This document shows positions 11,248-48,074 of a DNA stretch of 64,000 bases, piece after piece (positions within the stretch are counted from its first letter, which is position 1; each line of letters begins with the position of its first letter). The notes beneath the pieces are model-generated. The model was not told where the DNA came from, did not search any database, and saw only the letters and a program-made list of their open reading frames with translations. A program made the translations under genes and the position numbers. This DNA is from a virus (taxonomy: Duplodnaviria; Heunggongvirae; Uroviricota; Caudoviricetes): the IMG/VR virus record IMGVR_UViG_3300037400_006466, positions 172,098 through 236,097 of that record. The stretch is one strand, 5' to 3'.

Positions 11248-11267
11248 TCCGTAAATGCACTGAACGG

Positions 11268-12903: not shown

Positions 12904-12907
12904 TCAA

Positions 12908-28828: not shown

Positions 28829-29168
28829 TCACATTCTCCTCTATGTTCATATGTATCACCTTGAACAGTCCGTCAGGGATATAGACACCAGTCTCCTTCA
28901 TGATGAACTCCTGGAACAGCCTGCGGGAATAGGCCAGGGAATCGAATCTTACATCTACCCTGTCATTCATTTCACCCAAGGATACTGAGGACACTGAGGG
29001 ACCTATGACAATATCAGTGTTGATGCTGTGGACATACCTCCATGGAATGATGCCCTTGATTCTCTCCCAATCACTGGAAGTGATCTCACTTTTCTTGAAT
29101 CCATATATCATATAACTGGTTATCTTCTTCATATATCTAATATAATGAAAGCATTCAAGCCTCTTCAA
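28818..29168 (-). CDS. hypothetical protein
   Basis: ORF. Confidence 0.5.
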   Translation of the reverse strand: MKRLECFHYIRYMKKITSYMIYGFKKSEITSSDWERIKGIIPWRYVHSINTDIVIGPSVSSVSLGEMNDRVDVRFDSLAYSRRLFQEFIMKETGVYIPDGLFKVIHMNIEENVNEG

Positions 29169-29355
29169 TCTTTGATATGCATTCCCTGCTGAAAGTCAGC
29201 TCTTTTCTTATATCATCAAATCTTATGATGAATGACTTCCCGTCATCACTTCTATAAACAATCTTACCTATCTTTCCAAGAGGTTCAGGAAGCTCCTTGT
29301 ACTTCCTGTCCTTTGGATTCCTTATTATCTTCACCTTGTCTCCAGGTCTTATCAT
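29155..29355 (-). CDS. small KOW/SH3-like protein
   Basis: ORF. The GDKVKII...GKIGKIV pattern suggests this fold. Confidence 0.45.
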   Translation of the reverse strand: MIRPGDKVKIIRNPKDRKYKELPEPLGKIGKIVYRSDDGKSFIIRFDDIRKELTFSRECISKIEEA

Positions 29356-30320
29356 CAGATTCCCTTTTCCTTTCTGTATCTGAATATGCTTCTTGCCAAA
29401 GGGTCAGTCTCATCTTTACTTTCCCAATAAGACGCCCTTTTGTCAAAGTACTCCTTCTCAAGGTCAGGATTCAGCTCCACTCCGAACGGGTCAGGGTCCT
29501 CGAACTCAAGATTGTCCCATTGGACTCCGAAGGACTCAGCTGAGTTCTCCTCCTTGTAGTACTGACCTTTGGAATGGTCACTCAAGCTACAATCAGCAGG
29601 AAGTGGGACCCAGTAGTCAAGAAGCTCAGGAACCTTCCTCTCCTCAACGTGCTTGATATGGGCGAGAACATCCTTAAGCTCATCCTTGTGGATATAGTAG
29701 TCTATACTGTCATGGATCTCATTCCATACCCTTGACTTATATCCCTTGGATATGAGCCAATCCTCTATCTCCCTCATGGCCCTTCCCCTTATGCAGGCCT
29801 CGAAGTTCTGTGCCAGATAGTTCTTGGCTATGTTCTCAAGGTTCTTCAACTCACCTGAATAGAACTTGTTATCATAGGCTCCCCTCAACCTCAGCTCAAT
29901 GAGATTTCTGGTTGACCCGAAGACAGACCTGCAATATCCGTGTTTGGCGGCATAGTCCACCTCTCTGTCACATCTTGTGAGAAGTCCAGGATATCCATCA
30001 AAGAATCCCTTTCTCATTCTTGATGCGGCGGCCACATACCTCTGATGCTCATCTGTAAAAGTCTTGTATTTGGCTCTGACTTCCTCAAGCTCAGGTTCAC
30101 AATGGTTGTCCTCAATGTACTGGTCAACATCATTTATGTTCCAGTATATCTCAAGGGAATACTGTGACAGGATGCTGGCACTTCCTCCGAAAATCAAAGA
30201 GAAGTTCTCAGCCTTGGCGATTTGTCTGAACTTCTTGTAATCACCATATCCTTTCTGTTTCTTGAACTCATTGAGGGTTATTTCCCTGTGTTCTGTTCTT
30301 CTTGTTATCTTACAGGGCAT
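29355..30320 (-). CDS. family A DNA polymerase, C-terminal fragment (fingers O-helix motif B and palm motif C)
   Basis: FRQIAKAENFSLIFGGSA matches motif B (RRxAKxxNFGxxYG). VWNEIHDSI matches motif C (HDE). There is no motif A or exonuclease here; those are in 34367..36496. Confidence 0.8.
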   Translation of the reverse strand: MPCKITRRTEHREITLNEFKKQKGYGDYKKFRQIAKAENFSLIFGGSASILSQYSLEIYWNINDVDQYIEDNHCEPELEEVRAKYKTFTDEHQRYVAAASRMRKGFFDGYPGLLTRCDREVDYAAKHGYCRSVFGSTRNLIELRLRGAYDNKFYSGELKNLENIAKNYLAQNFEACIRGRAMREIEDWLISKGYKSRVWNEIHDSIDYYIHKDELKDVLAHIKHVEERKVPELLDYWVPLPADCSLSDHSKGQYYKEENSAESFGVQWDNLEFEDPDPFGVELNPDLEKEYFDKRASYWESKDETDPLARSIFRYRKEKGI

Positions 30321-30499
30321 TAAGTTGTCCTCCTTTGGTCATATACAGATTTTCAAAAATATATGAATCCACTATTAATATAAATCTTTATTTAAGATTC
30401 CTGGGAGGAAACTAATAGGCTTTTTAAGAACTTCTTTCCTCTGGTAACATTTATATATTTTATCATAGAATTAATATAAAATAAAGTAATGAGTATTTA

Positions 30500-30532
30500 T
30501 AAAAATAGGGTCAATTACTTGACCCCATTTTA
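30500..30532. terminator. hairpin terminator, T-rich on both sides (bidirectional)
   Basis: Stem gggtcaa / ttgaccc with loop ttac. Flanked by aaaaata and cattttatt. Confidence 0.5.
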
Positions 30533-30691
30533 TTGAAATTAATAAACTTCGGCTACTCTGGTTAGAGTCGGATACATCCCTACATCAATAGGAGTAGTAT
30601 AGTTTTTAAGTTCCTTAAGGACCCTTTGTTTAGTCTTTTCATCTACAAAGCCATACTCCTCAATTACCTTAGTTACGGATTTCTTGACGAT

Positions 30692-31417
30692 TTAACTTTT
30701 ATTTTTTGGCAATCTTCCTAAAGTACATCCTTCTGGACAAGTATTTGCAAAGAATTCTTGTGTATCATTATGATACCATTTTCTTCCTTTTTTAAATTCA
30801 GAAGAAAGAGCAGGATTATCTTTCATTTTTTCTAAAAGATTTGCTCTCTTTTCTGGGTCTGACCACATAATTTTATTATGATGTCTTGTACCATTTTTAC
30901 ATCTTTCTTGTTTTTGTATGTCTTCTTCTGACTGTGACTTCCAAAAGGCTTTTTGTTTTTCTATGCTCTCTTTAGATTTTTTCTTTCCAGTCCAATATAC
31001 TTTATTAAATTCTTTCATTCTATCAGAAGCATCTTTTCTTTGTTTAGGTGTATTTGCATATTTACCAGCTTGAGTAGAATTCCATCCTTCTCCACCAGAA
31101 CCTATATTATATTCTGCTTTTCCATTCAATCTATATTGTTGAATATAATATTTTTCTACTTCTGATATTTCTTGAATAGTAATATTATCTTTTTCAAAAA
31201 GAATCTGTTTAGAGAAATTTTCTTTACCATACTTTTGTATGGCTTCTCTTATTAATTTACCAGAACCATAATAGTCATTAAAATCTTCATCAATTTTTGG
31301 TGAATGTTGACCTATGTAAGTTTTATTATTGATTAAATTGGTGATTAAATAAACATACCTATATTTAGGTATTTGATTTGATTTTCTCATATTATTTTCC
31401 TTTAAAGAGGATTCCAC
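30692..31417 (-). CDS. GIY-YIG homing endonuclease
   Basis: KYRYVYLITNLINNKTYIGQHS...YYGSG is a GIY-YIG motif. A Lys-rich C-terminal region could bind DNA. Codon usage is AT-rich. Confidence 0.8.
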   Translation of the reverse strand: MESSLKENNMRKSNQIPKYRYVYLITNLINNKTYIGQHSPKIDEDFNDYYGSGKLIREAIQKYGKENFSKQILFEKDNITIQEISEVEKYYIQQYRLNGKAEYNIGSGGEGWNSTQAGKYANTPKQRKDASDRMKEFNKVYWTGKKKSKESIEKQKAFWKSQSEEDIQKQERCKNGTRHHNKIMWSDPEKRANLLEKMKDNPALSSEFKKGRKWYHNDTQEFFANTCPEGCTLGRLPKNKS

Positions 31418-31507
31418 GCCTCTATATATAATTAGTATATAAAAGAGTTAGGCACACCTATGAGATAAGTGTGCCAATAAGGTGGAATCTTACTGTCCTC
31501 TATAATT

Positions 31508-32479
31508 TTAGTTCAAATTTACAAGTGTGCCATTAGCTGTAAGTGGCACATAACTTGGAACTCTGCGTCCATCCCACAAATTAGCTTCAATTTCACTTAT
31601 ATCAAGTTCTCTTGTAAGTTCAATAATTTCCTTATAAGGAAGTAAGCTTTGATAATAACTAGCTTCTGCTTCTCCAGCTAGCTTTCTAGCCTGTGCTTCA
31701 GCTTCTGCTGCTATAACCTTAGCATCTGCTTCTGCTTGCATTTTTGTTTTTAATGCAATAGCCTCCTGCTCTGCTACAGCAACTCTCATTTGTGCTTCAA
31801 CCTCAGCTTTTTCCTTTGTAGCGGTTGCTTCTGCTACCTGCTTCTGAGCCTGTTGTTTAGTAACCTCAAGCTCCTGCTGAGCTACCTTAACCTGCTGGGC
31901 CATTCTCATTGTATTGGCAATCTGTTCATCAAACTGTGAGCTCCAATCATAATTATTTATAGTTAAAGAAGTTATAATAACAGGATACTTTTCCAGTCTA
32001 TCAATAAGAGCAATTCTTACTTTTTCTGTAACTTCCTCTTGTTTTTCAATAATATCATAGATGGAGTACTTACCGATTACCTCTTTGATAGCACCGAGTG
32101 TGTTGTCTCTGACAAGACTCTTGATTGTGGAATCCTGATATCCGTTTACAATATCCAGGATTCTGGTCTCATCATATGTCCAATAGGCGACAAGTTCACA
32201 GGCAACAGACTGCATATCTGAAGTGACTGCGGCATCCTGTCCCATACTGAATGTCATGTTGAGTGCCTTTGGACTCAGGTCATACTTTCTGACAGTCTGA
32301 AAGAAAGGTGCTTTGACCTGTATTCCAGGATTAAGTACAGTATCACCTGCCTTACCCATCGTGACCTTGACTCCTCTCTCAGTCGGATTAAGAACTGTAA
32401 ATGATGAAAAGACAAGTACCAAAAGTACCGCCAACATAACACCACCGATAATAAGCTTTTTCAGTGTCTTGGAATTCAT
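31508..32479 (-). CDS. SPFH / band-7 (stomatin/prohibitin/HflK-C-like) membrane protein
   Basis: N-terminal transmembrane helix, then an SPFH-like core (GVKVTMGKAGDTVLNPGIQVKAPFFQTV...), then a long Ala/Glu/Gln-rich coiled coil. Confidence 0.7.
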   Translation of the reverse strand: MNSKTLKKLIIGGVMLAVLLVLVFSSFTVLNPTERGVKVTMGKAGDTVLNPGIQVKAPFFQTVRKYDLSPKALNMTFSMGQDAAVTSDMQSVACELVAYWTYDETRILDIVNGYQDSTIKSLVRDNTLGAIKEVIGKYSIYDIIEKQEEVTEKVRIALIDRLEKYPVIITSLTINNYDWSSQFDEQIANTMRMAQQVKVAQQELEVTKQQAQKQVAEATATKEKAEVEAQMRVAVAEQEAIALKTKMQAEADAKVIAAEAEAQARKLAGEAEASYYQSLLPYKEIIELTRELDISEIEANLWDGRRVPSYVPLTANGTLVNLN

Positions 32480-32498
32480 TTTATATTCTCCTTAAAAA

Positions 32499-33068
32499 TT
32501 AATTATCTTTGACATATATGACAGTATGACAGGAATCAACTTCTGAGCTTATGAGCTTGAGTCTGTCCCACTTGACATACATTTCCTCTACTTCTTTGAT
32601 GCTCTCATTGAATTCATCAAGGTCTTCCTTCACTCTGTCCTCTATGGTCTTTATGATTGTGTCAGGCTCACCGAACCATATATATTCATTATCAAAGTCC
32701 TGAATCATTATGTATGGTCTGTCAATCTTGAATCCATCAAAGTCCTTGTAGAATATAACACTGACTTCCTCAACCTCTCTCCAGAAGTTGATATAGACAT
32801 TCAACAAGTCAATATGCTCCTGGGTCAGAGGCCATACCACATACCAGTCTCCATCACCAACCTCATGATATGGTGTGCTGAGATATCCAGGAGTCGGATT
32901 ATATAACTTGGTAATACTGTGACAGAACTCATCAAGAGAGTGTTTCTGTTCTTTCATGGCCTTCTCTGCCTTACAACTTGCCTCCCAAAACTCACACTGA
33001 GCCTTACTTGACCATCTTTTTCCATCTTCTGACTCATACAGAATCTGTGTATTGACTATTTCTCTCAT
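32499..33068 (-). CDS. hypothetical protein
   Basis: ORF. Confidence 0.55.
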   Translation of the reverse strand: MREIVNTQILYESEDGKRWSSKAQCEFWEASCKAEKAMKEQKHSLDEFCHSITKLYNPTPGYLSTPYHEVGDGDWYVVWPLTQEHIDLLNVYINFWREVEEVSVIFYKDFDGFKIDRPYIMIQDFDNEYIWFGEPDTIIKTIEDRVKEDLDEFNESIKEVEEMYVKWDRLKLISSEVDSCHTVIYVKDN

Positions 33069-33234
33069 TTTCTATTACTTCCTTCTATATATTGTTATTG
33101 GAGGTAAGAGGAGTCGAACCTCTGTGTCAGTTCAGTGCGTCCTTATCAGGGAACAGGGGATTTCGTAGCATGGGCCTTTCGTCTCTCCTAATCACCTTAC
33201 TGGTCGAATACCGATGTACCCCCAAGTAGCCTTG

Positions 33235-33624
33235 TCAGGCAGTCTCTGACTTTACCTTTGAGAGAGCCAGGGTGTAAACCATATCATTGGTAAGACACTC
33301 AAGGGAATGAAGAACGATGATAACCTTCTCAAAGAGAGGGTCTCCCATGCTTGATCCCATAGGGATAACACATCCGCTTCTTGTCTCAATGTCCTTGACG
33401 CTGAGATTCCCGAAATCCCTCAGAAGAAGAGGATTCTTCTCCCTGCACTCGACGGCTCTCTGATGGGCGAGATCCTTTCCTTTGTCCCTGTCGAACTTGT
33501 CAATCTTTGTGTTACAAAGGGACATACCCAGTCCGAACTTTCCCCTGTCATAGATAAGCTCCATGACACCGAACTTGTGACCATCAAAATCCTTGATGTA
33601 CCTTACTCTGCTGATTGTACTCAT
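33235..33624 (-). CDS. hypothetical protein
   Basis: ORF. Confidence 0.55.
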   Translation of the reverse strand: MSTISRVRYIKDFDGHKFGVMELIYDRGKFGLGMSLCNTKIDKFDRDKGKDLAHQRAVECREKNPLLLRDFGNLSVKDIETRSGCVIPMGSSMGDPLFEKVIIVLHSLECLTNDMVYTLALSKVKSETA

Positions 33625-33650
33625 ACTATATTTCTCCTATAATGATTATC

Positions 33651-34037
33651 TCAATGAAGATTCCATGCCTCCAGGGGCTTTCCGTCCCAGACACCATAGG
33701 AAATCTTGTCATAATCAACCTTCACCTTGGGAAGGCCCTGCTTGGTGTAGGTGACCTTCCTGCGGATTGTGGAGGGATCCCACTGGCTTCCCTCAGCCTC
33801 CACCCATTCTCCGTCACTGCCCTTCTTGGGAGCGACATGGTAGGGGTCGTCATAGTAATGGGGACCTTTCTTGCCATCATCATAAAGGGTCTCATGCTGA
33901 AGCTCCACAAGGGTCACCATCGACGGTGTGGTCTTAGTCACCTTATAAAAGGTGTATCCGCAGAACTCCCAACCATATGTTGACTTGGCTGCCAGAATAT
34001 CCCCGACCTTGATACTGTTGACTGCTGTGTTTGCCAT
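33651..34037 (-). CDS. hypothetical protein
   Basis: ORF downstream of a consensus promoter. Confidence 0.6.
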   Translation of the reverse strand: MANTAVNSIKVGDILAAKSTYGWEFCGYTFYKVTKTTPSMVTLVELQHETLYDDGKKGPHYYDDPYHVAPKKGSDGEWVEAEGSQWDPSTIRRKVTYTKQGLPKVKVDYDKISYGVWDGKPLEAWNLH

Positions 34038-34090
34038 AGGTCTCTTTCTCCTTACAATCCTATATTAACACACCATGGACTTTTTGTCAA
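34038..34090 (-). promoter_or_regulatory. sigma-A-like promoter (TTGACA-N17-TAATAT) plus GTAAGGAGA
   Basis: Minus-strand read: TTGACAaaaagtccatggtgtgtTAATATaggattGTAAGGAGaaagagacctATG. Confidence 0.55.
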
Positions 34091-34099
34091 TAGCCATAA

Positions 34100-34363
34100 T
34101 CAGATTTTTCCGAATGACCATTCAGTGTTGTGTATGATGCTGTTCACCTTGGCGGTCTCAACCAGTCTGTCAAGGAACACACATACTGACATATCCCAGT
34201 CCCTTCTCTCACAATCAGCTATGAAGTTCAACCTTGTGTCCCTTGTCATACGCACACCTGAAGCCTCACATAGCCTTTTCACAAAGCTGTCCTTATCAAG
34301 GAGTTCAGGCACAATATCAGCCATATTCAGCAACCTGTTCTTTCTGTCAAGTATATCAACCAT
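34100..34363 (-). CDS. hypothetical protein
   Basis: ORF. Confidence 0.5.
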   Translation of the reverse strand: MVDILDRKNRLLNMADIVPELLDKDSFVKRLCEASGVRMTRDTRLNFIADCERRDWDMSVCVFLDRLVETAKVNSIIHNTEWSFGKI

Positions 34364-34366
34364 ATC

Positions 34367-36496
34367 TCATCCCACTATCAGTGTATCATCTTCCCTAAGG
34401 TCAACTGCGAACTTCTCACCATGATCTGTCATGACTGTCTGACCACCCAAGAACTCATAGGTCTGTCCGTCCTGCTCCACCGTGATTATGTCTATGTCAA
34501 CTTCCTTTCCCACATAGAAGGTGTTGTAGGCAGTGTTGCTGTGAAGGTCAACTCCTGCTCCCTCCTGGAGAATCTTGACAAGGGGGTCATTCACATCTCT
34601 TATGTCTATGGCGGCAATTCTCATCTGCAGACTTGAATAGTCCACAGTACAGAGGTAATAGTTCTCATCATCCGGGGTCTTGAGACAGCTTTTTATCTCC
34701 TTTGCGAACTTTCCTCTTGTAGGGACCTGCTGCATATTGGGGGAGTTGCATCTGCTTCTTCCAGAATCTGTCATCATCGCAAGGAAATTGGGGTGCATTC
34801 TCCATGTTCCGTCCTCTTTGTGATACTGGATATACTGTGTCCATCCCTTGTCCCCTTCCTCATCATTCTCTCCGAGGAACTCAGCCATGAGTGAGTTCTT
34901 GGTATCCTCTCCGACAAAGGTGTTGAGAAGTGTGTTGAAGGACTTGAGCTGTTCAAGGACTGCGGCCTCAGGATGAGTCTTCTTCCATCTTGATATCTGG
35001 AAGTCTCCTGTGGCCAACTCCCCTGTGGAAGTCCTACCCCAGTCCTCCCATCCTTTCTTCTCAAGAAGCTTTCCCAACTTCTGTCCTGATTCCCACTGGA
35101 AGTCCATGGGGACACCGAAAGAGATTCCCAGCTTCTTCTTAAGCTCGTTGATGGCCTCCTTCATCTGGTTCCTGACATCATTCAGCATTCCCTTGTCAAT
35201 GAACACACCCAGATACTCCATCTTGGCGTAAGTCCTTGCAGCAGGTACACGGAAAGTCCTGTAATAGTACTCGAATCCATGGTCACTGAATTCATTGGGA
35301 TATTTGCTGTCCAGTTCCCTGCAATGGTCAAGTATGTTGTCCCACACCCTTCTGGTGACTATGGCATCCATGATTGCATAATCTTTGAGAGTATCCTCAG
35401 GAATCTCAAGGTAATTTATCTCATCCCTTTTCTTTCCCAGCTTCTCCTTATACTGGTCAAGAGGTCTCTCATACCCTCCGAACTCGCTGTAAAGGAAAGC
35501 CAAGGCCTTCAAGGAGTTGGAGCGGGTCTCATCAAGGGTATGACCCATGAGGATTATATCCTCATCTATCTGAGCCTCAGGTATTCCGTTACGCCAAAGG
35601 AACTTCACATCGAACTTGAGGTTGGCACCGAGCTGTCTGTTGTTCTTCAGTATGGACCCCAGCTTTCTCTTGTTATCCTTATCCATCAGTCTCCAAGGGA
35701 TGTAATATCCTGTAATTCCGTCAAAGCTCAGGGTTATGCATCCTATGGTGTCCTTGATGAAGTTGAGTCCTGATGTCTCCAAGTCCCATGCCAGCACCTC
35801 GTCATGTCTGTCCTTGTTGGGCTCATAGAACAGAGTGTCGAACTCCTCTGCATTCCTTATGAATATCTTGTTCAGCTTGGGGAATCTGGGAGGTATGAAG
35901 GGATTCCCCTTGATGGCATTGCTTATCTGCAATGAGGCCAACTTGGTCTTATATGAATCAACTGCACCGGTGCACCACTTTCCGTATCCACTGAATCCGA
36001 AGATGTCATCCCTTATGGACGCCATGGGGAACACCCTATGGCAGTTGTCCCTTGTGAGGTCAGGGGTGAACCAGAAATTGGACTTACCGAAAAGTATCTG
36101 CTCCATATGGTTGGGATAGAGGTCATCTTCTTGAAGGAGTCCGTAGAGGGCAGGTCCGCTTGTGAGGATAGGAGCAAACTGAGGGATATGATCCATGAAC
36201 TTTGACCTGTTGTTCTTGTAGAACTTGATGAGTCCTTCCTTGGCCTCCTTCTCATTCCACTCACAGGAAAGGACATTGAGTATCATGTATTTGGTGCATC
36301 CGTTTGACGCAAGCCATTTATCTATGTATCCCAGGTATCTGGGCTCGAACTGGTCCTCCACCAGTATTATCAGAGGAAGGTCATATTTGGCCTTGTTCTG
36401 AGATTTATCCAAGAGAACAGGGTTGTCATGAACCTTGAGATTGAGCGCCTGCTTCCTTGAATTGGCGCTGATATTACCGAAGCTGAAATCACTCAT
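34367..36496 (-). CDS. family A DNA polymerase, N-terminal fragment (3'-5' exonuclease and palm motif A); ends before motif B
   Basis: LAWDLETSGL matches Exo I. RMHPNF...TDSGRSRCNSPNMQQVP matches the conserved PolA block. CTVDYSSLQMRIAA matches motif A (DYSQIELR). It then reads QEGAGVDLHSNTAYNTF, followed by a 40-aa tail and a stop. Confidence 0.85.
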   Translation of the reverse strand: MSDFSFGNISANSRKQALNLKVHDNPVLLDKSQNKAKYDLPLIILVEDQFEPRYLGYIDKWLASNGCTKYMILNVLSCEWNEKEAKEGLIKFYKNNRSKFMDHIPQFAPILTSGPALYGLLQEDDLYPNHMEQILFGKSNFWFTPDLTRDNCHRVFPMASIRDDIFGFSGYGKWCTGAVDSYKTKLASLQISNAIKGNPFIPPRFPKLNKIFIRNAEEFDTLFYEPNKDRHDEVLAWDLETSGLNFIKDTIGCITLSFDGITGYYIPWRLMDKDNKRKLGSILKNNRQLGANLKFDVKFLWRNGIPEAQIDEDIILMGHTLDETRSNSLKALAFLYSEFGGYERPLDQYKEKLGKKRDEINYLEIPEDTLKDYAIMDAIVTRRVWDNILDHCRELDSKYPNEFSDHGFEYYYRTFRVPAARTYAKMEYLGVFIDKGMLNDVRNQMKEAINELKKKLGISFGVPMDFQWESGQKLGKLLEKKGWEDWGRTSTGELATGDFQISRWKKTHPEAAVLEQLKSFNTLLNTFVGEDTKNSLMAEFLGENDEEGDKGWTQYIQYHKEDGTWRMHPNFLAMMTDSGRSRCNSPNMQQVPTRGKFAKEIKSCLKTPDDENYYLCTVDYSSLQMRIAAIDIRDVNDPLVKILQEGAGVDLHSNTAYNTFYVGKEVDIDIITVEQDGQTYEFLGGQTVMTDHGEKFAVDLREDDTLIVG

Positions 36497-36546
36497 ACTT
36501 CTAATATAAAGACAGGAATGACTAATTTGAGAGAAAGGAAAACCCT

Positions 36547-37053
36547 ATGAACAAAAAGATAGTCAAAGCTCTCATGAAGGGATATCTCACGTTAAGGAAG
36601 TTCTGGGACCCTCTTAAAGAGCCTGTAAAGGTAAGGAGTGAGTATCACTGCTCAGGAAGTGAGTTCTCTGACAGGATAAACTCCTTCGAGTATAAGGCTG
36701 ACCCGTTAGGGGGACTGTTTGACCATACAGCTGACCCCAACAAGTTCTTTGATAATACAAAAGAATCAGGCAGAGACTGTGATGATTTCCAGAGACAGTG
36801 GTCTTGGTGGGGAAGATACAATGGCTATAAAGCCTATGAGTATGTGATATGTGACCCCACTACTGTGAAGACTGCATTCGGAACGATGCACGTCATAGGG
36901 ACGTTGCAGGATGAAAGGACTAGGATGTGGTATCTGACCAATTACAATATCTATGGGCCTTTTGTGACCGAGGAGGATGCCCTGGGTTACATGAGGAACT
37001 TCATATCCTATTCAAAGGATAACGTCATAGTCAAATACAGGGAAGTGAAATAA
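36547..37053 (+). CDS. hypothetical protein (Cys/His-containing, possible papain-like fold)
   Basis: ORF with SD AAAGGAAAA. The DCDDF...HVIG pattern is only suggestive. Confidence 0.55.
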   Translation: MNKKIVKALMKGYLTLRKFWDPLKEPVKVRSEYHCSGSEFSDRINSFEYKADPLGGLFDHTADPNKFFDNTKESGRDCDDFQRQWSWWGRYNGYKAYEYVICDPTTVKTAFGTMHVIGTLQDERTRMWYLTNYNIYGPFVTEEDALGYMRNFISYSKDNVIVKYREVK

Positions 37054-37207: not shown

Positions 37208-39697
37208 ATGGATCATTTCTTTTTAGATGACGAAGGTCTTAGACACTTACTTGAGCGCATAAAGAACTATTTTGCATCTCAGACTCAAGTCAACAGCGAC
37301 CTGACTGATTTGTTAAATAGAATAAACAATCTTAATGAAGCTAAGGCTGACAAGAGTACTCTTAATACAGAGATAGACAGAATTGACAACTCTCTAAGAG
37401 ACCTCAGTGATAATAAGGTAAACGTATCCACATATAATGATGATAAAAGTACCATTCAAAGCTCAATCAACAGCTTAGGTACTTCAATAAGCAGCCTTGA
37501 AAATAAGCATGATACTGATGTCAGCAGCATACAGTCTTCACTGGATGAGATAGAAGGTGACATCAGTGGACTTGGAAGTTCTAAGCTTGATAAATCTACA
37601 TATAATACAGACAAGAGTGAAATTGACAGTGAAATCAGTGGAATTCAAGAGTCACTGACTGATCTTGGTAACTCTAAGGCCAGCAAGGCTGAGCTCAATA
37701 CAGAAGTAGAGAGAATTGACAACTCAATCAGCACCGTCAATGAATCAATAGGAGGAATCAGTTCCTCTATTGGAACAATCAATACCTCTATAAGCACAAT
37801 CAATACCTCTATTGATGCAATCGACACCTCTATAGAAACAATCAATGGTTCTATAGGAAGTTTGGAAGAATCAGTAGAAGGACTTGACACTTCAGTATCT
37901 GCACTTGAAAGTTCTGTAGAATCCATTGAAGGTTCAATAGATGACCTTGGTGATTCTCTATCTCCTGTGGCCACAAGTGGTGACTACTCAGACTTAATCA
38001 ACAAGCCAACCTTATCTCAAGTTGCTACAAGCGGAAGTTACAATGACCTGTCTGATAAACCTTCCATTCCGGATTCCCCAGTACAAAGTGACTGGAATGA
38101 AAGTGACAGCTCTTCTCAGGCCTACATACAGAACAAACCCTCCATACCAGTTGTTCCCACAAATATCAGTTCCTTCACAAATGATGCAGGATACATAACC
38201 CTCAGTGAAGTTACTGAACAACAGCAGTCAGACTGGTCTCAATCAGATAGCACTGCTCCAGACTTCATCAAGAATAAGCCAACAATTCCGGCTGCTCAAG
38301 TGAACAGTGACTGGAACAGCGATTCTGGTGTAAGTCAAATACTCAACAAGCCCAGTCTTTCTTCTGTGGCTATAAGCGGAAGTTACGATGACTTGTCTGA
38401 CAAGCCGACAATACCTACTGTCAATAATTCTACTATCACATTCACTCAAGGTGGAACAACAAAGGGAACCATAACTCTGAATCAGAGTGAAAACAGTACC
38501 ATTGCTCTAGACGCTGGTGGTGATGGAAGTGCTGATATAACTGAAATAGAAAATAGAATGGATACTGTTGAAGATACAGTGTCTGATCTTCAGAATCTCA
38601 TAGAAACCTATGACTTTGGTGACCCTGCATCTAAGACATATGTAGCCAATACAGTTCGTGCTACTGAAGAAAGATTGAATGGACAGCTGGAAACTCATGA
38701 GAATGATACAAACAATCCTCACAGTGTAACTTATAATCAGGTAGGTCTGGAAGTAGTTGAGGACATAGAGTCTGAACCAGAAGAACCAGAGAATCCTGAT
38801 CCATCTGAGGAACCAGATTACAAGTATATAGCATCAATTGATTATGTAAAGCAGTATGTAGATGAAAACGGTATAGGAATCGAAACCTTAGAAAGTCTAG
38901 AAGGTCCTGGTAAACCAGGATTATTATACATATATGGAGAGACACTCTATATATGGAAAGATGATGCATTCACTGCGGTATCCACTGCAAGCAGTGGTGT
39001 ATCAAGAGAACTTGAAGAAAAAATTAATACTTCCTACAGTCATACTTTTGATACAATAACCAATCCACATAACATAACCAAGGGAACAATAGGACTTGGA
39101 AATGTAGATAATACTTCAGATATAAATAAACCATTAAGCAGTGCGGCTATAACTGAACTTGCTAGAAAAGTAAATGTTGCTGAAATAGTGGATAATCTGA
39201 CTACACAGTCATCAGTTGCACCTTTGAGTGCAAATATGGGATATGAACTCAGTGGTAAAATAGCAGCATTGAGGTTGGAAGTAAATGGTATTGGATCCGC
39301 CCTTAGATTTAAAGGCACAGTATCCTCACGTTCAGATTTAGCCAATGTGCAGAGCCCTGCAGCAGGTGACTGTTATCAGATAGTGTCTGTTGATGGGCAG
39401 GACCCAGACGAAGGTCATATGTTCAGTTATACAGAGGGTGGCGGCGGCAGTTGGGTTGAGATAAGCGGATCCTTTGGAATTGATTTCGTTGCTGCTACAA
39501 TGGATGAAGTTCAATCAATCATAGACAGCTATCAACGTCCTAATAGCAATCAGAATGAGAACAACCAGACTGGTGAAAGCGAAGAAACAGGAGATGGCGA
39601 AGATAATGGACAGACAGGTGAAGGTGAAAAAGGTGAAAATGATGGTCAAGGATCCGAACCAGTAGTTGACCCTAATGCAGAATCTAGTGGAAATTAA
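37208..39697 (+). CDS. tail fibre protein with N-terminal coiled-coil heptads and NKP(S/T)...SGSY(N/D)DLSDKP(S/T)IP repeats
   Basis: Four copies of an (I/L)xNKPxLSxVAxSGSYxDLSDKPxIP repeat. S/T/I-rich heptads (TINTSIS...). Acidic, Gly-rich C-terminal tail. Confidence 0.75.
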   Translation: MDHFFLDDEGLRHLLERIKNYFASQTQVNSDLTDLLNRINNLNEAKADKSTLNTEIDRIDNSLRDLSDNKVNVSTYNDDKSTIQSSINSLGTSISSLENKHDTDVSSIQSSLDEIEGDISGLGSSKLDKSTYNTDKSEIDSEISGIQESLTDLGNSKASKAELNTEVERIDNSISTVNESIGGISSSIGTINTSISTINTSIDAIDTSIETINGSIGSLEESVEGLDTSVSALESSVESIEGSIDDLGDSLSPVATSGDYSDLINKPTLSQVATSGSYNDLSDKPSIPDSPVQSDWNESDSSSQAYIQNKPSIPVVPTNISSFTNDAGYITLSEVTEQQQSDWSQSDSTAPDFIKNKPTIPAAQVNSDWNSDSGVSQILNKPSLSSVAISGSYDDLSDKPTIPTVNNSTITFTQGGTTKGTITLNQSENSTIALDAGGDGSADITEIENRMDTVEDTVSDLQNLIETYDFGDPASKTYVANTVRATEERLNGQLETHENDTNNPHSVTYNQVGLEVVEDIESEPEEPENPDPSEEPDYKYIASIDYVKQYVDENGIGIETLESLEGPGKPGLLYIYGETLYIWKDDAFTAVSTASSGVSRELEEKINTSYSHTFDTITNPHNITKGTIGLGNVDNTSDINKPLSSAAITELARKVNVAEIVDNLTTQSSVAPLSANMGYELSGKIAALRLEVNGIGSALRFKGTVSSRSDLANVQSPAAGDCYQIVSVDGQDPDEGHMFSYTEGGGGSWVEISGSFGIDFVAATMDEVQSIIDSYQRPNSNQNENNQTGESEETGDGEDNGQTGEGEKGENDGQGSEPVVDPNAESSGN
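37751..37860 (+). repeat. tandem 21-bp (7-codon) coding repeat, about 5 copies
   Basis: The unit acaatcaatacctctataagc and variants encode (T/A)I(N/D)(T/G)SI(S/D/E/G). In frame inside the fibre gene. Confidence 0.7.
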
Positions 39698-39720
39698 TTA
39701 TAGATAAAAAAGGACACTTC

Positions 39721-42700
39721 ATGGATACTAAAGATAAATTTGTTACACTCGAAGGGGCAGGATTACTCTATAATAGTGTAAAAGACGACATAGAAGATTT
39801 AAATGATTCTCTTTCTGCTCTTGACGACCGCAAAATAGGATTTGCCACTGTTGATGGAGAAGAGCTGGTTTTGAAATCATCAGCTAATTCGGAAACGGAA
39901 ATTGCCAGACTTTCAGGCTTTGGTGGTGGTGGAGGTGGTGGACCTTCCTATATGTTCAGAGTTACCAATACCACTGGGTTCTTGGATACTACCAGAAAAG
40001 AGGGAAGTGAAATTGTTCTGTCATTCAACTGGTCCTCAAAGTATGATAATCAGAATACTGGTGATGGTGAGGTCAACGTAACCTTTAAGAACTTGCCAAA
40101 CGAGAAAATAAGACAATCAATATCTCAAACTGATGCTGGCGGTAATGTCTCTATTGATGTATCCAAATACATGAGACTCGGCCGTAATGACGTGACTGTA
40201 TCTGTTATTGATTCCTATTATCAGAAAAGAGAGCTTAACTTCTCTATTAATATTGTATCTCTGGAAATAAGTTCAAATTTTGTAGATACTGTTGTATACC
40301 CTATAGACAGTTCTAATAGTGTGCTTTTCCCGTACTCTATGAGTTATTCAGGAGAAAAGATAGTTCACTTTATATTGGATGGTACTGAGATAGCTACAAG
40401 ATCAATAACAACAACCTCAGAAGTTACTGAAACACTTACAGGATTGACTCATGGTGCTCATGAACTTGAAGTCTACTATACTGCTGTTATAAATGATGTC
40501 CCTGTCAATTCAAAAAACACTCTCAGATACAGTATTATGTATGCTGTCAGTGGAAATACTACTCCAATCATATCTTGTCCGTTTGATGATACCACTGTTA
40601 CACAATATGATAATGTGTCTATTCCTTATATGGTATATACCAACGGCCAAGAAACAAGTCATGTGTCTTTGTACATAAAAGGAACTGATTCAGAAACATT
40701 TACCTTAATCAATGAGCTGGATGTCAGATTAGCCAGACAGATTTGGACCTATAGAGCAGAAACACCAGGATCATTTACTTTTAGAATAGAGTCAGGAACT
40801 GTCTATAAAGAATTTACAATAACTGTTAGAAAAAGTGATATAGAAATTTCTCCTCACGAAGGTAATTTGATGCTGCATCTGAACCCATATCAGAGAGACA
40901 ACAGCAATGAAGAGACCAGAGGCACTTGGACCCAAGTGTGGGATCAAGGACAATGGGTAGCTACCAATGTTAATCCAGTATTCACTGGGTTCAACTGGAA
41001 GTCTGATGGTTGGATAAAAGATAGCAATAACATAGATGTATTAAGACTCCACTCTTTAGCAAAGGTTGAAATACCTTTTGATCCTTTTGACCCTGACAAT
41101 GCTACTGCTATTCCAACAAATGGAATGACCATTGAACTGGAATTTGCAACATCCAGTGTCATGAACTATAATTCTCCTGTGATTTCTTGTATGTATGAGG
41201 GTGTTGGCTTTGAGGTCACTTCTCAAGAAGCTAGACTCAGTGGTGCTGGTGAAAGCATAGGAACACAATTTAAGGAAGACGAGCATGTCAGAATCTCTTT
41301 TGTAATAACAAGACAAAACCCTGAACATATGATATACATTTATATCAATGGTGTTTTATCAGGTGCTAAAAGATATTCTGGTAACTTTGCACATCTTCAG
41401 TCATCTAAAATAACACTGGGATCTCAATTCAGTACTCTGGATTTATATCATATACGTATATATAATGTTTCTCTGAGTCACAAAGATATAGTTGACAACT
41501 GGATTGCTGATATGCAAGACAGTGAACAGATGATGACTGAATACTTTAATAAACTTATATATGATGATTCTGGAGAAGTATCATTAGCAAATATTTCAGA
41601 TCTTCCAATTGGATTACCATATCTGGTCTTAGAGACTGGGAGGCTTTCTGAATCAAAGAAAGACAAGGTGTCCACAGATGGATATTATGTAAATCCAAAA
41701 GACAGTTCAAGAAACTTTACATTTAAGAATGCTGTACTTTCTGTCCAGGGTACATCATCTGCTGACTATCCTAGAAAAAACTATAAGCTCAAATTTGAAA
41801 ACGGACTCACCATGAATGATGGTGAACATAAGAGTAAATATGCATTGAGAGAGGGGTCTATACCTGTAAAGACCTTTTGTTTCAAAGCTGACTATGCTTC
41901 TTCAGAAGGAGCAAACAACGTTGAGCTTGTAAGATACTATTGTGATATATGTCCAGTGAAGACTCCCCCTCAGACATATGATGAAAATGATACAGATGAA
42001 GAGAAGGCAGCAAAAGACAAAATACGTCAAGGTATTGATGGATTCCCAATAGTTGTTTTCTGGGATGATAAGGTGGAGGAGCCAAATCATAAGTTAAAGT
42101 TCCTTGGAAAATATAATTTCAACAATGATAAGGGAACCTCAGAAGTCTATGGTTTTTATGCAGATGATAATGTACATGACCAGTCTTGGGAAACAAAAAA
42201 CAACGACACTAACAAGGCACTGTGGAAGGATGACAACTATACAGATTATGATTCATGGAAAAATGCCTTTGAATCCAGATTCCCAGATTATGGTGATGAA
42301 GAAGGAACAAAAGCTGATATCTCAGGTTTAAAAGCTCTTGCTTCATGGATAAAATCAACTGACACAAATAACATAATTGATTCTGTATTTAATCAAGAAA
42401 CAGGAGAGACTACATACAGTGATACAGGTAGGCCAATATGGGCTGTTGGTGATAGTGAAGTAGTAGATGGTAAAACCATCTGGCATGGTGCGCCATTATC
42501 TCCAGCTGTTGAGATTAATGGCGTAGAATATGAAGAAGATAATGAGGAATATAGACTTGCCAAGTTCAAATCACAGATAGAGGATTACTTCGATCTTGAA
42601 GATACTCTTTTCTATTATCTTTTCACTGAAGTGTTCTTGATGGTTGACTCAAGAGTAAAGAATTCATTCCCTACCAGATATGATTCTCATCCAGGTGCAA

Positions 42701-45700
42701 AATGGATGTGGCTACCATACGATATGGATACTGCTATAGGAATCAACAATGAAGGTCAACTTGCATTCCATTATTCTCTAGAAGATATTGACTGGGTAAA
42801 TGAAAATAGCGCAATGGTCTATAATGGTCAGCATTCTGCTTTATGGCTAAATGTCAGAAAGTGTTTCTTTAATGAAATAAAGCAAATGTATCATGACCTT
42901 AGAACTGGAGATAGAAAACTCTCTTATGAAGAAATAGAGAAGAGATTTGAAGACCACCAGAAAATGTGGCCTGCCTCTATTTATAATGAAGATGCTTATC
43001 AAAAGTATATAGTGCCAGTAGTCTATGAAGGGGAAGATGAAGAATACCTCGAAATGTGTCTTGGATCAAAGGCTGAACAGAGAAAATGGTGGCTATATAA
43101 CAGATTCAAGTATCTTGATTCAAAGTATGAGGTTGGAGATTCTGCTACCAAGAAAATAACATTCAGAGCCTATCAGCCAGGATCATTCACCTTGACTCCT
43201 TATTCAGATGTTTATCTTAAAATTGAGGCATCTCATATTGGTTCAGATCTTGTAAGAGGTCAAAAAGGAATTGCTTCTCCAGTACCTATTTCTTTTGGAT
43301 CAGCAAATGATTCTGTAGTTAACATATATTCAGCAGACCTTCTCATGGATATTGGAGACCTTTCTCAACTTAGACCAGGATTCTGTTCCATATCAGATGC
43401 AGTTAAACTTCAGCGTTTAAAAATAGGTGGAGAAACCAGAAACACTCTATTCAATTCACTTACTCTTGGAAACAACACTTTGTTGACATACATAGATGTA
43501 CGTAACTGTCCGAATTTAAGAGGAGTTATAAGTGCAAAAGGATGTCTCTCACTGCAGACAGCACTGTTTGAAGGTACTTCCATTACTGGTATTGAATTAC
43601 CAGATGGTGGAATTGTAAAAACCTTACATTTGCCATCTACCATAACTACACTTGAAATACTGAATCAGCCTTACATATCTGACTTCCAGATAGAATCTTA
43701 CAGCAACATAGTTGAGTTAAATCTGGAAAATGCCGGGGCTGCACAATCTAATGCTTTGGATACTTTAATGCAGTTAAAGAAAGGTGCCTTTGTCAGAATT
43801 ACTGGACTTGATTTGAGATTTGAGGGTGGAGCAGACATTAAAGCTTTTCTCAATAAGACTGCAACTCTTCGTGGAGGATATAGGAATGATGACCGCATTC
43901 TTATTACACGAGACTACCCATATCTGTCTGGAACTGCCTATATAAAAGATGCAACTCCTCAACAAGTCGAGACTCTTGAAAGTTATGGACTTACAGTCAC
44001 CTATGATCACTTTGTCATGATTGTAGAGTTCTATGATGAATTCGGACGTACAAAGCTTCAGGAGCAGAAGACTTATACAGGAAATGTGAATTACACAGGT
44101 TCACCCGTAGCAAAGGACCCAGATGCACAGTATACCTATTCTTTCGGTGGTTGGAGTAGAGTTCCTGGAGGAGATCCCGAACCTAGAATACTCAATAACA
44201 TTACAGACTCATGTAGTCTGTACATGGCCTATAACAAGCTGATAAGGTCTTATGAAATATCTTTCTACAATGAAGGCAGATTACTTGTAAGAAAGGCTGT
44301 TCCATATGGCACAATGCCCATATATGATGGAGTTACCCCAGTATATGAGGGAGTAGATCCAGATAACTACGGTGAGTTTACAGGCTGGACTCCTGAGCCC
44401 CATGAAGTAAACGGTACTGCAAATTATTTTGCTACATTCAGATATACTGGATTATATACATACAACTACTTGATGAAAGAAGCAGCTTCTGTAGAAAGTG
44501 ATAATGTTACAGGAATAGCTCAGTACGCATTTGCCAACCACAGTAAACTGAGAACTGCTACCTTTGAGGCTGTTACAAGAATTGGAAACAATGCTTTCAG
44601 TGGGTGTTCTTTATTATCAGAGCTGATAGTTCCAAACGTAGAATATATTGGAGAATATGCTCTTAATGGTACCAGAATTTATAATTTGAACTTCCCAAAG
44701 GTTAAAGAATGCTATGGAATATACACGGGTGCTGAAATACTTGATTTTGATATTCCAAATTTGGAAATACTTAGAGAATCTGGATTTAATGGTAATGGAA
44801 ATACATCAATAACGTCGATATCCTTCCCTAAATTGACAGACTTTACAGAAATATCATATGCCCCAAGTTTGGTTTCAGGATTTAAAAACTTAAGTAGTTT
44901 ACAATTGCCTGTATTAAGAAGGTTATCCGGTGCTACATTTGGAGAATCTGCGATGGATGACTTTACTGAAATCAATCTACCTTCACTTCGTACTATTAGT
45001 TATTTTAGGTCACAAAACCCGATTGAAACTGTAGATTTAGGTCCCGATTTGCAGAGATTCCCACAAGGAGGATCTTCTTATTCTAGCACATATAATAAGC
45101 TTAATAGTGAATTAAAAACATTGATTCTCAGGCCAAAGAGACTTCTGACTTTATCTCAATCAGTATCTGATAGTTACAGTCCTTTCTATTATTGCTATAA
45201 TACAGTGACAATCTATGTGGATCCCTCTCTTGTAGACCAATATAGGAATGCTACAAACTGGAGCGTGATGTCTGATAGAATCAAACCTATATATGAAATC
45301 ATTGCAGCATCTACTTTGACTGTAACTGCAAACAATGTTTCTGGAAGATATTCAACTACTACACTTCATGTTCATGCTGAAGGAAGCGGTGAATACCTGG
45401 GAGAGTTACAACCTGGAACAATGACACTTGACTTTGATTGCATATCACCAGACTTTGGTATAAACCCAACTGAAAATGACAGAACTGTTACAGTTGAATA
45501 CACATATGGTGGACAGACAGTGAATGTCAGCTTTACTCAGACTGGTTGTAAGCCAAATACCCTAGTCATAGATACTACAAGAAATATAATAAATACTTCT
45601 TCATATGTATATGAAGGAAATCTGAGTGTAATTATTAACGGAAGTTATGTTACTAAATCATCAGCACAAATCCTTACCAGAGGACTTGAAAAAGCTGAAA

Positions 45701-46209: not shown

Positions 46210-48074
46210 GTGATTATACTACAACAAGACAAGAAATGGGTGATAAGCTTACGAGAGATGCCCTTATACAAGGAAATTTGGATACCTTTATAGAAGATCT
46301 TATAATAGAGCCTCCATATTATTTTTTCTATTATAATAATTCTATACGTGAGCTCCATTTGATAAATTTGAATAAATTATCAGATTCCTCAATAAGTAAT
46401 TGTCAAGCACTGACTAAAATAAACCTTCCAGATTTAGAGGATATAAGTAGTAGTTGCATTAGTGATTTAAACAATCTTGAAATAATAGGAAATGATATTT
46501 CATTGGGCCCAACACTCCCAAAGCTTAAGTATATCAGGAACTCGGGAATTTCTAATATTTCAAAGCTACAAAAATTAAATCTTCCGGAACTAGTATATGC
46601 TAATGGTGGTATTACTAATCTAGGCAGCTTAATTGAACTTAATATGCCAAAACTGGAAGTTTGTAACACTAATTTTAATAGATTATCACGTTTACTTACA
46701 TTAGAACTTCCTAGTATTAAACTTCTTGGTTTACAAACTTATTATAGTCCATATCAAGAAAACTGGAATAGTATGGCTTCCTATACGTTTAGAGATTGCA
46801 TTTTACTTCAAACTATTGATATTTCCTCAGAAACTCTATATTTGATTAATTTAGGAAGAGCTCTTTATAACTATTCTTATTCTATTTCTAGTGGTGCTTC
46901 TATTGTAAATCTAATAATCAGAAGTAAGATAATTCCATATCTACAGGCATTTCAGGTACCAATGCTTAATGTTGATGATGGACAAGAACAATATAAAACA
47001 ATTAATATCAGAGTTCCATTCCATTTGTTGAATGACTATAAGAGTAGTCCTTTCTGGGGAAGTCCCAATTATCTTTCACATTTACTCCCAATAGAAACCG
47101 TAAATACAGAATACAGTAGATCAATAACTATAGCTAATAATGAGATTCCATATTGGGCAACCTCTAATGAAATTACCTGCACACTCAACTGTGACTGGAC
47201 AGATAATGTAACTAATGTCACACATACTGGTGAAGATCTCACCTATACTGTACATAAGAGATTTAATCCTTATCTAAGTTCCACCACAAGAACTGTTACT
47301 TTATCTCAACAATATGGATCTCAGGAATTATCTGCTCAGTATACACAAACACCAATTGATTTTTCTGTTGGTTATAGTGTACCGGATCAGACAACTTGGC
47401 ACTATGTTGGTGAATGGGGAACATTACAGGACCCAAATCCTGCTCTTCAGCCTCTTAAAGAAAATCATGTACTTACATATCATGACAACTATGTATACTT
47501 TACATGCGATGGTTTCCATGACAGTAATATTGAGTTCTATAAAAAAAGAACAGGAATTGATTTATATCACTTAATCAACATGCCAGATGAATGTGACTAT
47601 TTTAAAAATTCAATATGTATTTTCTTCAATGGATATACAACTTTTGATTTTTATATAGTACAGAATGTAGGGTCATATACTTATGGAAATAATATAATGG
47701 TTCTTCCAATTGACCAGTATTATCCGAATCCAAATGAAATTCCACCCCTTTATAGTGATATCAGCAATTCTAGCTCCTATAATGGTGCTTATTATATTCG
47801 TAATAACATCAATGATACAGGTACTTATACTGGTTATGGTCATTATCATAAAAGCACACAAGAGGGAGTTCCTAATTATAATGATGCACTTTCTAGTCCA
47901 TATGATGGAAACTGGCATCATGTACGTTTCACAAATTTAGATGGTGGAGCACATTTTGTAAGAGTAATAGAATATTCTACAAGTCATACACAAGATAAAG
48001 AACTGTATTATTTGAATAGACCTATAATTGCAATAAACAAGAATTATACATATAATCCAACACAGAATGCATAA
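46206..48074 (+). CDS. leucine-rich-repeat (BspA-like) tail-associated protein
   Basis: ATGA overlap with the upstream gene. N-terminal leucine-rich repeats (LNLPELVYANGGITNLGSLIELNMPKLEV...). Confidence 0.7.
   Translation: MSDYTTTRQEMGDKLTRDALIQGNLDTFIEDLIIEPPYYFFYYNNSIRELHLINLNKLSDSSISNCQALTKINLPDLEDISSSCISDLNNLEIIGNDISLGPTLPKLKYIRNSGISNISKLQKLNLPELVYANGGITNLGSLIELNMPKLEVCNTNFNRLSRLLTLELPSIKLLGLQTYYSPYQENWNSMASYTFRDCILLQTIDISSETLYLINLGRALYNYSYSISSGASIVNLIIRSKIIPYLQAFQVPMLNVDDGQEQYKTINIRVPFHLLNDYKSSPFWGSPNYLSHLLPIETVNTEYSRSITIANNEIPYWATSNEITCTLNCDWTDNVTNVTHTGEDLTYTVHKRFNPYLSSTTRTVTLSQQYGSQELSAQYTQTPIDFSVGYSVPDQTTWHYVGEWGTLQDPNPALQPLKENHVLTYHDNYVYFTCDGFHDSNIEFYKKRTGIDLYHLINMPDECDYFKNSICIFFNGYTTFDFYIVQNVGSYTYGNNIMVLPIDQYYPNPNEIPPLYSDISNSSSYNGAYYIRNNINDTGTYTGYGHYHKSTQEGVPNYNDALSSPYDGNWHHVRFTNLDGGAHFVRVIEYSTSHTQDKELYYLNRPIIAINKNYTYNPTQNA

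Follow-up and report, generated by a model that had tools for sequence, protein, structure and literature searches.

We analysed a 64,000-nucleotide stretch of a Caudoviricetes genome (positions 172,098 to 236,097 of IMG/VR record IMGVR_UViG_3300037400_006466, hereafter the window) and found that a replicative family A DNA polymerase is very probably encoded there by two independent genes, whose N-terminal and C-terminal chains would associate non-covalently. Split replicative polymerases are known as rare curiosities. The cut at this locus runs through the catalytic domain and has been inherited by a large and deep clade of uncultivated phages, with contigs of up to 285 kb. Of most interest are how old and how faithfully kept the break point is, a beta module that lies across it, signs that the split can be reversed, and the role of the intervening DNA as a slot for cargo.

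Results

As a preliminary description of the window had proposed, the polymerase is present as two open reading frames (ORFs), 34367..36496 and 29355..30320, both on the minus strand, as are all genes, domains and motifs of the window given below unless noted. Pfam matches and translations agree that the first ORF carries the exonuclease and the polymerase up to motif A and the second carries motifs B and C, so that the break falls between motifs A and B, inside the catalytic core. The Pfam models PF00476 and PF01612 were both matched above their cut-offs, the polymerase model in two pieces, and the enzyme has the Klenow-like right-hand fold of family A.

The N gene, assigned from the ORF list and by Pfam and PHROG and colinear with intact homologues, encodes 709 amino acids that comprise a uracil-DNA glycosylase (UDG)-like domain, a 3'-5' exonuclease, and the polymerase as far as palm motif A and the beginning of the fingers; the thumb is also assigned to this subunit. 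Its N-terminal domain of ~205 residues (35882..36496) gave no match in sequence searches. In the model of a homologue this domain shows the family 4 UDG fold expected of a UDG-PolA, and by the fold of this predicted domain the window polymerase belongs to the UDG-PolA type. The exonuclease domain spans residues 213-389 (35330..35860; Pfam DNA_pol_A_exo1, E 1.6e-11), and the protein covers positions 3-198 of the 381 positions of the DNA_pol_A profile. Palm motif A reads DYSSLQMR in the translation (residues 619-626, 34619..34642), with D619 and R626 invariant in alignment A2. The chain ends in a tail (residues 665-709, 34370..34504) that aligns with strands lying within residues 685-717 of the intact homologue P0015, namely strands 1-4 of the beta module described below, and the TGA stop codon (34367..34369) follows directly after residue 709.

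The C gene (29355..30320; ORF list, Pfam, PHROG and alignment) encodes 321 amino acids with beta-module strand 5, motif B on the O-helix of the fingers, motif C of the palm and an extension at the C-terminal end, covering DNA_pol_A profile positions 235-376. It has its own Shine-Dalgarno sequence, AAAGGAGG (30329..30336), 8 nt before the ATG at 30320. The head of the protein, MPCKITRRTEHRE (30282..30320), aligns with the P0015 strand at residues 739-747, which is strand 5. Fingers motif B, FRQIAKAENFSLIFG, occupies residues 31-45 (30186..30230, read from the translation), with R32, K36, N39, F40, F44 and G45 invariant in alignment A3, and palm motif C, IHDS, occupies residues 202-205 (29706..29717), with H203, D204 and S205 invariant in the same alignment. 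Motif C carries Ser in place of Glu (HDS versus the HDE of Pol I) throughout the clade, intact members included.

The two fragments are colinear with a single polymerase. On the PHROG 17 profile they occupy positions 657-1050 (N) and then 1057-1241 (C), which shows that the halves are contiguous, and against nine intact homologues (987-1057 aa, recovered from public metagenomes; alignment A1) they abut with no missing segment. A hidden Markov model (HMM) of the intact homologues was covered from position 1 to 699 by the N ORF and from 702 to 1021 by the C ORF, the latter measured on an identical copy in the public Logan contig L008. Searched with this HMM, the window's 659 stop-to-stop ORFs (minimum length 40 aa) gave matches for these two alone.

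Both halves are under strong purifying selection, with a ratio of nonsynonymous to synonymous substitution rates (dN/dS) of about 0.04 (0.046 for the N half and 0.039 for the C half, each against the relative L010). Only 64 kb of the genome are visible and large phages sometimes carry several polymerases, which would leave room for the two ORFs being remnants of a dead polymerase gene, with replication carried out by another polymerase. The low dN/dS of both halves argues against such decay, as do the clade-wide invariance of motifs A, B and C, the retention of both halves in more than 100 lineages, the absence of any other PolA from the window, and the replication module (primase, 5'-3' exonuclease and SNF2 helicase genes) that forms the neighbourhood in the relatives; we regard a dead gene as very unlikely. 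The metagenomic source of the sequence also raises the question of an assembly chimera. The same arrangement is, however, present with 100% identity over 11 kb in L008, which may be the window's own source, and close variants of differing sequence occur in two other assemblies from other runs (L009 and L010); the architecture also recurs in dozens of more distant contigs. An artefact of this kind is exceedingly improbable.

We compared the 120 best clusters of N-protein homologues, which span 98% down to 36% identity. About 108 of them (37-98% identity) are ~680-785 aa long and end at the same position as the window protein, 86-117 residues past the start of motif A and a few residues past a conserved '..A.DL.E.D.L'. 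The C fragments of the close clade, ~260-340 aa in length, all start with 'M.CKI(T/K)(K/R)..EHR.IT.EEF'. With phmmer, run exhaustively over 1.84 billion representative proteins, we obtained 365 relatives of the C half; the best 150 of these included 148 new sequences, 57 of them stand-alone proteins of at most 345 aa, and about 40 of the 57 (as 50%-identity clusters) have an 'ML/IKI.K' head like that of the window protein. These shared end points show the split to be old and inherited rather than recent. An exact copy of the N protein (P0183) lies on a contig of 284,702 bp, which suggests a jumbo phage. A megablast search of the 8-kb region against 50,697 phage records gave no match, and tblastn of each half against INPHARED/GenBank phage records gave only matches of 23-30% identity and no member of the clade, so that there is no cultured relative for comparison.

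The DNA between the halves (30321..34366, 4046 bp) is a variable cargo island whose content differs in every relative examined. The relatives carry one to six unrelated genes at this place, including genes for a methylase, Vsr-like nucleases and the IS605 proteins TnpA/TnpB. In L001 (76% identity) the gap holds one D12 methyltransferase gene, in L002 (65%) one unknown 257-aa gene, and in L009 (98%) a different fourth gene. L003-L006 (53%) have four genes, among them an opposite-strand gene for a zinc-finger protein (169 or 359 aa) with a Vsr-like C-terminal motif recognised by eye and a gene for a 401- or 157-aa protein, and these genes vary between contigs with identical N proteins. In L015 (7539-15470; a 53%-identical relative on an IMG/VR contig of 158,768 bp) polA is in three pieces, covering HMM positions 1-305, 291-702 and 704-1021, where a DUF7487 gene (387 aa) interrupts the exonuclease domain and the second gap is occupied by an IS200/IS605 TnpA-TnpB pair. 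DUF7487 genes also overlap the 3' end of the C half in L003 (15720-16676) and at the equivalent places in L004-L006, and the family may be a mobile, nuclease-associated one. Nuclease-like genes occur in other gaps as well, with an HEase-like C-terminal region in L022 and a GIY-YIG gene in L034 at a different break.

The order and spacing of the halves also vary. L021 (31% identity) has the C gene (9098..9982) directly upstream of the N gene (9995..12118), with 12 nt between them; after the N gene (locus 9098-13989) follows a 584-aa protein with repeated KYGVDN motifs and, by eye, a Vsr-type-like C-terminal motif. In L012-L020 (32-47%) the 10 kb to each side of the N gene hold no C half, and tblastn on these loci was negative. 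A pattern scan of IMG/VR with the C-fragment alignment retrieved only P0023-type contigs, and a scan with the distant C halves P0159 and P0160 retrieved nothing; the contigs that carry these two end just upstream of the C gene.

These arrangements bear on whether a single chain could arise from the halves after transcription or translation, through an intron of group I or II, through trans-splicing or ribosomal bypass, or through a split intein. Phage polA genes commonly harbour introns with homing endonucleases, the product of the GIY-YIG gene in the gap reaches 53.1 bits on TIGR01453, 'group I intron endonuclease' (cut-off 56.05), and a true split intein exists in the related PolA of L026. 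In agreement with the preliminary description, which had argued against a group I intron, Rfam shows no ribozyme: no intron family was matched on the whole window at the gathering threshold or on 29000..37000 at E up to 1, and the only Rfam matches overall were a tRNA-Leu, a marginal SNORD36 and a sub-threshold CyaR. Six genes that look translated fill the 4 kb between the halves, the N ORF terminates at its own stop codon, and the C ORF is furnished with a Shine-Dalgarno sequence and an ATG. No cis-joining mechanism can be reconciled with the permuted order in L021 and the lack of any C half nearby in L012-L020, and both indicate that the halves behave as ordinary separate genes. As for an intein, tail plus head remained without a match to Hint or intein profiles at E-values up to 10, while the intein of L026 matches Hint_2 at E 0.0034; there is no Cys or Ser at the start of the tail and no HN/C junction at the head, the intact homologues retain tail and head in the mature chain, and together these segments amount to ~57 aa (head ~12 aa), which we judged too small for an intein. 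We therefore give joining into a single chain very little credence and favour two separately translated subunits.

In order to see what lies at the break, we used an AlphaFold2 model of P0015 (mean predicted local distance difference test score, pLDDT, 93.7; predicted template modelling score, pTM, 0.90), an intact homologue with 61% and 60% identity to the window halves (alignment A5). In this model a five-stranded sheet sits between the helix after motif A and the motif B helices, just before the O-helix, with strands 1-4 at residues 685-695, 698-703, 707-710 and 714-717, a loop at 718-738 and strand 5 at 739-747. By alignment, the window N tail supplies strands 1-4 (EVDIDIITVEQ, QTYEFL, TVMT and EKFA), the break falls in loop 718-738, and strand 5 is the C head, KITRRTEHRE. 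Tail and head hold several invariant or nearly invariant positions (alignments A2 and A3), which supports the idea that the module, split over two chains, serves as a docking aid. The beta module may help to hold the two subunits together.

The module is specific to this clade. Intact distant relatives (~30% identity; L023-L025, L027-L033 and L035) skip profile positions ~657-713, a segment of ~55 residues that contains the break, and E. coli Pol I also lacks it. Within the clade, 11 intact homologues with variable junction linkers appear at six or seven places in the crown of neighbour-joining trees, and in the tree rooted on more distant polymerases the next ~55 earliest-branching tips are all split; since these trees carry no support values, the count of six to seven is indicative only. 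The nesting of intact among split forms, together with the early-branching split tips, favours repeated re-fusion over repeated splitting, and we infer from the trees that the intact forms of the clade are apparently re-fusions. As to where their linkers come from, the junction DNA of the intact L007 was compared with the DNA around the stop codon and in the leader of L003, its split sister, and no homology could be recognised.

We also considered the beta module as the remnant of an intein. The C heads of the 'MLKIxK' type resemble the first strand of a C-intein, and the N tails of the 'T..(H/R)G..FA.DL..D.L' type resemble the end of an N-intein. The module gave no match to a Hint or intein profile and lies ~25-28 residues upstream of the genuine intein site of L026, and we rejected this origin, retaining it as a low-probability speculation. 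A broader proposal, which we put forward tentatively and hold to be rather unlikely in full, is that fission is a stable but reversible state, in which the two-chain beta module would be a dedicated non-covalent clasp, evolved or co-opted in the clade (perhaps a split-intein vestige), that allows repeated separation, permutation and re-fusion, and the slot between two indispensable half-genes would be a protected landing pad on which accessory and selfish genes persist and turn over.

In the window itself, the gap holds six co-oriented genes, comprising a GIY-YIG endonuclease, an SPFH protein and four hypothetical proteins, just as had been described. The first (34100..34363, 87 aa), which is kept in L009 and L010, starts with an ATG 3 nt after the N stop and in frame with it. 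The junction (34364..34369, minus strand) reads TGA, then GAT, then the ATG of the 87-aa gene in the same frame, and the two genes are tightly coupled. Read-through of this TGA from the N gene into the 87-aa gene was considered and rejected, TGA being the stop of 29 of the 61 long ORFs of the window and the in-frame arrangement being absent from L001. Genes 2 (33651..34037, 128 aa), 3 (33235..33624, 129 aa) and 4 (32499..33068, 189 aa) were taken from the ORF list; the position of gene 4 is held by a 76-aa gene in L009 and by a 174-aa gene in L010, where the region still has ~91% DNA identity. None of these four proteins matched a family in Pfam, PHROG, PADLOC or NCBIfam. Gene 5 (31508..32479, 323 aa) encodes an SPFH/Band_7 membrane protein (Pfam Band_7, E 9.6e-25; HflC/HflK-like by NCBIfam).

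Gene 6 (30692..31417, 241 aa) encodes a free-standing GIY-YIG homing endonuclease, with matches to SegE_GIY-YIG (27.6 bits, cut-off 25), the PHROG 314 homing endonucleases (E 7.7e-29) and PADLOC HEase; it remains below cut-off on the generic GIY-YIG model (18.1 versus 22.6 bits), as on TIGR01453. The gene lies in a low-GC patch (0.27-0.32, versus ~0.45 in the polymerase ORFs). An 11-bp hairpin with a T-rich tail lies just upstream of it (31451..31475, minus strand), and a palindromic GC hairpin with T-runs on both strands lies downstream (30508..30525); both are pattern matches only. As to the promoter and terminators that had been assigned to the gap, the best sigma-70-like site of the region lies at 34062..34090 (minus strand; TTGACA, a 17-nt spacer and TAATAT, preceded by TG) as a consensus match only, and the number of terminators was not above the shuffled expectation.

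The preliminary description had further attributed the split to the GIY-YIG endonuclease, and this part was not supported. The halves of L010 are 98% (N) and 99% (C) identical in protein to those of the window, at ~91-92% DNA identity, and are split at the same codon; L010 also has the same first three gap genes and the SPFH gene but lacks the GIY-YIG gene. A blastn comparison of the window with L010 showed that homology is lost at 31754, in the 3' end of the SPFH gene, which differs from the L010 allele, and returns at 30314, in the third codon of the C gene. The segment without homology (30315..31753) measures 1439 bp in the window and ~456 bp in L010, and contains the SPFH 3' end, the GIY-YIG gene, its two flanking hairpins, the leader, and the ribosome-binding site (RBS) and start codon of the C gene. 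The GIY-YIG gene is thus present in one and absent from the other of two close genomes, with altered flanks, which is the footprint of a mobile gene. The presence of the same split in L010 without the endonuclease, together with a break point common to ~108 clusters, indicates that the endonuclease moved into a gene that had been split before. That the exchanged segment brings the RBS and start of the C gene fits the published idea of nuclease cassettes supplying the expression signals of the downstream piece (PMC2677866).

These data also allow us to weigh a recent insertion of the endonuclease or its cassette into an intact polA as the event that split the gene. Such an insertion would account for the GIY-YIG gene in the gap and its low-GC patch, for the nuclease-like genes in the gaps of several relatives (L003/L004, L022, L034 at its different break, and L026 with a weak TnsA-like match), and, in line with the fractured-gene model (PMC2677866), for a cassette that brings the C gene its RBS and start codon. 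The recent version is refuted by L010, with its nearly identical halves and same split; L001 and L002 moreover share the split, with a methylase gene (L001) and an unknown gene (L002) in place of the endonuclease, and the break point is common down to 37% identity. Overall we consider causation by the endonuclease improbable, although an ancient endonuclease-driven origin of the split is possible, and we favour a late arrival of the endonuclease.

Several features lie outside the polymerase locus. There is a strong strand bias, with 55 of the 61 ORFs of at least 100 aa on the minus strand, and stop codon usage (TGA 29, TAA 26, TAG 6) is consistent with the standard code. Very large proteins are encoded at 37208..48074 (plus strand) and 57794..63997 (minus strand), namely an 829-aa repeat-rich protein with faint coiled-coil-type Pfam matches, proteins of 2162 and 622 aa with BspA-type LRR_5 repeats, and an ORF extending to the end of the window, 2067 aa or longer; they are probably tail-fibre or adhesin-like. 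The sole tRNA of the window is a tRNA-Leu with anticodon TAA (48522..48605, minus strand; Rfam). The SNORD36 match (42317..42382, minus strand; 32.1 versus a gathering threshold of 30 bits, E 0.34) lies inside the 2162-aa ORF and is almost certainly spurious. An N6/N4 DNA methylase gene is found at 5227..5955 (minus strand; Pfam N6_N4_Mtase, E 2.6e-35), in contrast to L001, whose methylase is of the D12 class and lies in the polymerase gap. Among distant relatives, L052 (5919-9208) and L054 (7846-10053) carry genes for GCHY-1 (GTP cyclohydrolase I), PTPS/QueD and radical SAM/QueE near the C-half and SNF2 helicase genes; L052 additionally has Vut_1, and L001 has a radical SAM gene downstream. 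This 7-deazaguanine/queuosine-type gene set hints at modified DNA in part of the clade.

Discussion

A two-subunit enzyme is, in our judgement, the best reading of the locus. The interpretation offered in the preliminary description holds in its outline of a two-gene, non-intron, two-subunit family A polymerase; it fails in naming the endonuclease as the cause, and it had overlooked the beta module, the variability of the gap and the relatives with a permuted C half or none nearby. Several points weigh against a two-chain polymerase or limit its details. The physical association of the halves and the activity of this enzyme are properties that we infer. Only 64 kb of a genome of maybe ~285 kb are visible, so that a second complete polymerase could be encoded elsewhere. 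The structural model is that of a fused homologue and not of two chains, and the contacts of strand 5 were derived from the order of secondary-structure elements alone. Motif C is HDS rather than HDE, invariantly so in the clade. Finally, the C half of L012-L020 was not found within 10 kb, which is not proof that it is distant.

With these points in mind, a working mechanism for the two-chain polymerase can be outlined. The N and C subunits would be translated separately, as suggested by the conserved position of the N stop and by the C gene's own RBS and ATG. The two polypeptides would then associate without a covalent bond and rebuild one Klenow-like active site, and strand complementation in the beta module, together with the native palm-fingers interface, may hold the enzyme together. 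The split itself is old and inherited, the DNA between the halves acts as a high-turnover slot for accessory and selfish nuclease genes, and the GIY-YIG gene is a late arrival, brought by a cassette in exchange for the C gene's former leader and start codon.

The clade offers a natural series, from intact polymerases without the module, through split and adjacent halves, halves separated by a cargo gap, permuted halves and N genes with no C half within 10 kb, to intact and apparently re-fused forms. Such a series lets one ask how an active site spread over two chains assembles, and whether essential half-genes anchor hotspots of gene flux. The assembly of split active sites has been called an open question for both gp43 and NrdA (PMC2988022). 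In practical terms, annotation pipelines will mislabel halves of this kind as truncated polymerases, and it is tempting to speculate that the module might serve as a small, intein-free tag for joining two proteins.

We consider the locus a variant of the known genes-in-pieces phenomenon and not a new kind of system. Its closest parallel is the family B polymerase of Aeromonas phages 25 and 44RR, which is split into gp43A and gp43B (Petrov, Karam and co-workers); these halves co-purify and are active (reviewed in PMC2988022). In both cases a replicative phage polymerase is encoded by two genes that keep their original order and enclose a variable insert, and in one of the phages the insert holds a GIY-YIG seg-like gene; in phage 25, this seg-like endonuclease is suspected of having invaded an already split gene (PMC2988022). 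The present polymerase differs in belonging to family A rather than family B and in being known from sequence alone. Whereas the gp43 split concerns a few close phages, here a single break point is common to a deep clade of more than 100 clusters at 37-98% identity. The gap in the clade holds up to six genes, and the halves may be permuted or the C half absent within 10 kb, unlike in gp43A/B.

In the NrdA of Aeromonas phage Aeh1, split by an insertion of mobE (Friedrich et al., 2007, cited in PMC2988022 and PMC2677866), the reassembled pieces are active. As in Aeh1 NrdA, whose halves reassemble non-covalently, an essential enzyme is cut in a critical region with no intein, and the invading cassette supplies expression signals. 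The endonuclease insertion is, however, the evident recent cause of the split in Aeh1, while in our locus it is dispensable for the split and a later arrival.

Fractured genes with split inteins and a free-standing endonuclease were described by Dassa et al. (2009; PMC2677866), whose evolutionary model allows for the endonuclease being lost and the two parts becoming dislocated. The order of N part, nuclease gene and C part is the same here, and both the endonuclease-less and the dislocated state exist among relatives in the clade. Unlike the split-intein genes, the window halves have no splicing motifs, and the extra residues stay in the intact homologues. A genuine case of this type is found in L026 (4359-8725), a fractured PolA with a split intein: the N-intein starts with CFIKGTKILT, contains TKDHNMII and ends with DEIICI, and the C ORF starts with MRIKKIIKKIYDKKIPVYCFS and reads ...IIGQ/CNFGFLYG, where the intact sister L024 reads KSKN/CNFGFLYG. 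The joined intein parts match Hint_2 at the E-value given above and Intein_splicing at E 0.023, and in the gap lies a 387-aa gene whose match to a TnsA-like nuclease is weak (E 0.0008, short of the cut-off). The short proteins P0293, P0294, P0299, P0321, P0330 and P0334 probably represent the same split-intein type at motif B. Split inteins of this type at motif B show that the region between motifs A and B is a recurrent target of mobile elements, and they stand in direct contrast to the window, which has no intein.

Two further cases concern split family A polymerase genes in phages. None of the reports that we found on them describes a cut inside the polymerase domain, between motifs A and B, that is clade-wide and has a module straddling it. 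In MEP401-type OM43 phages, an uncharacterised split divides the DNA polymerase over two genes, between which lies an unknown ORF (PMC10580990); these show no sequence relationship to the window genes (no close match in INPHARED), and the paper gives no break position, mechanism or clade survey. In T7-like cyanophages of the S-SBP1 and S-TIP37 type, PolA has undergone a fission between exonuclease and polymerase genes (Czernecki et al., 2023, PMC10201439; PMC12695635), which a 2023 survey of family A polymerases presented as the first split in that family (PMC10201439). The two systems have in common a family A phage polymerase encoded by two genes, the cyanophage pair being adjacent and predicted to reassemble. 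They differ in the place of the cut, which in the cyanophages follows a domain boundary, whereas in the window it passes inside the polymerase domain, so that the active site is spread over two chains and other genes lie between the halves.

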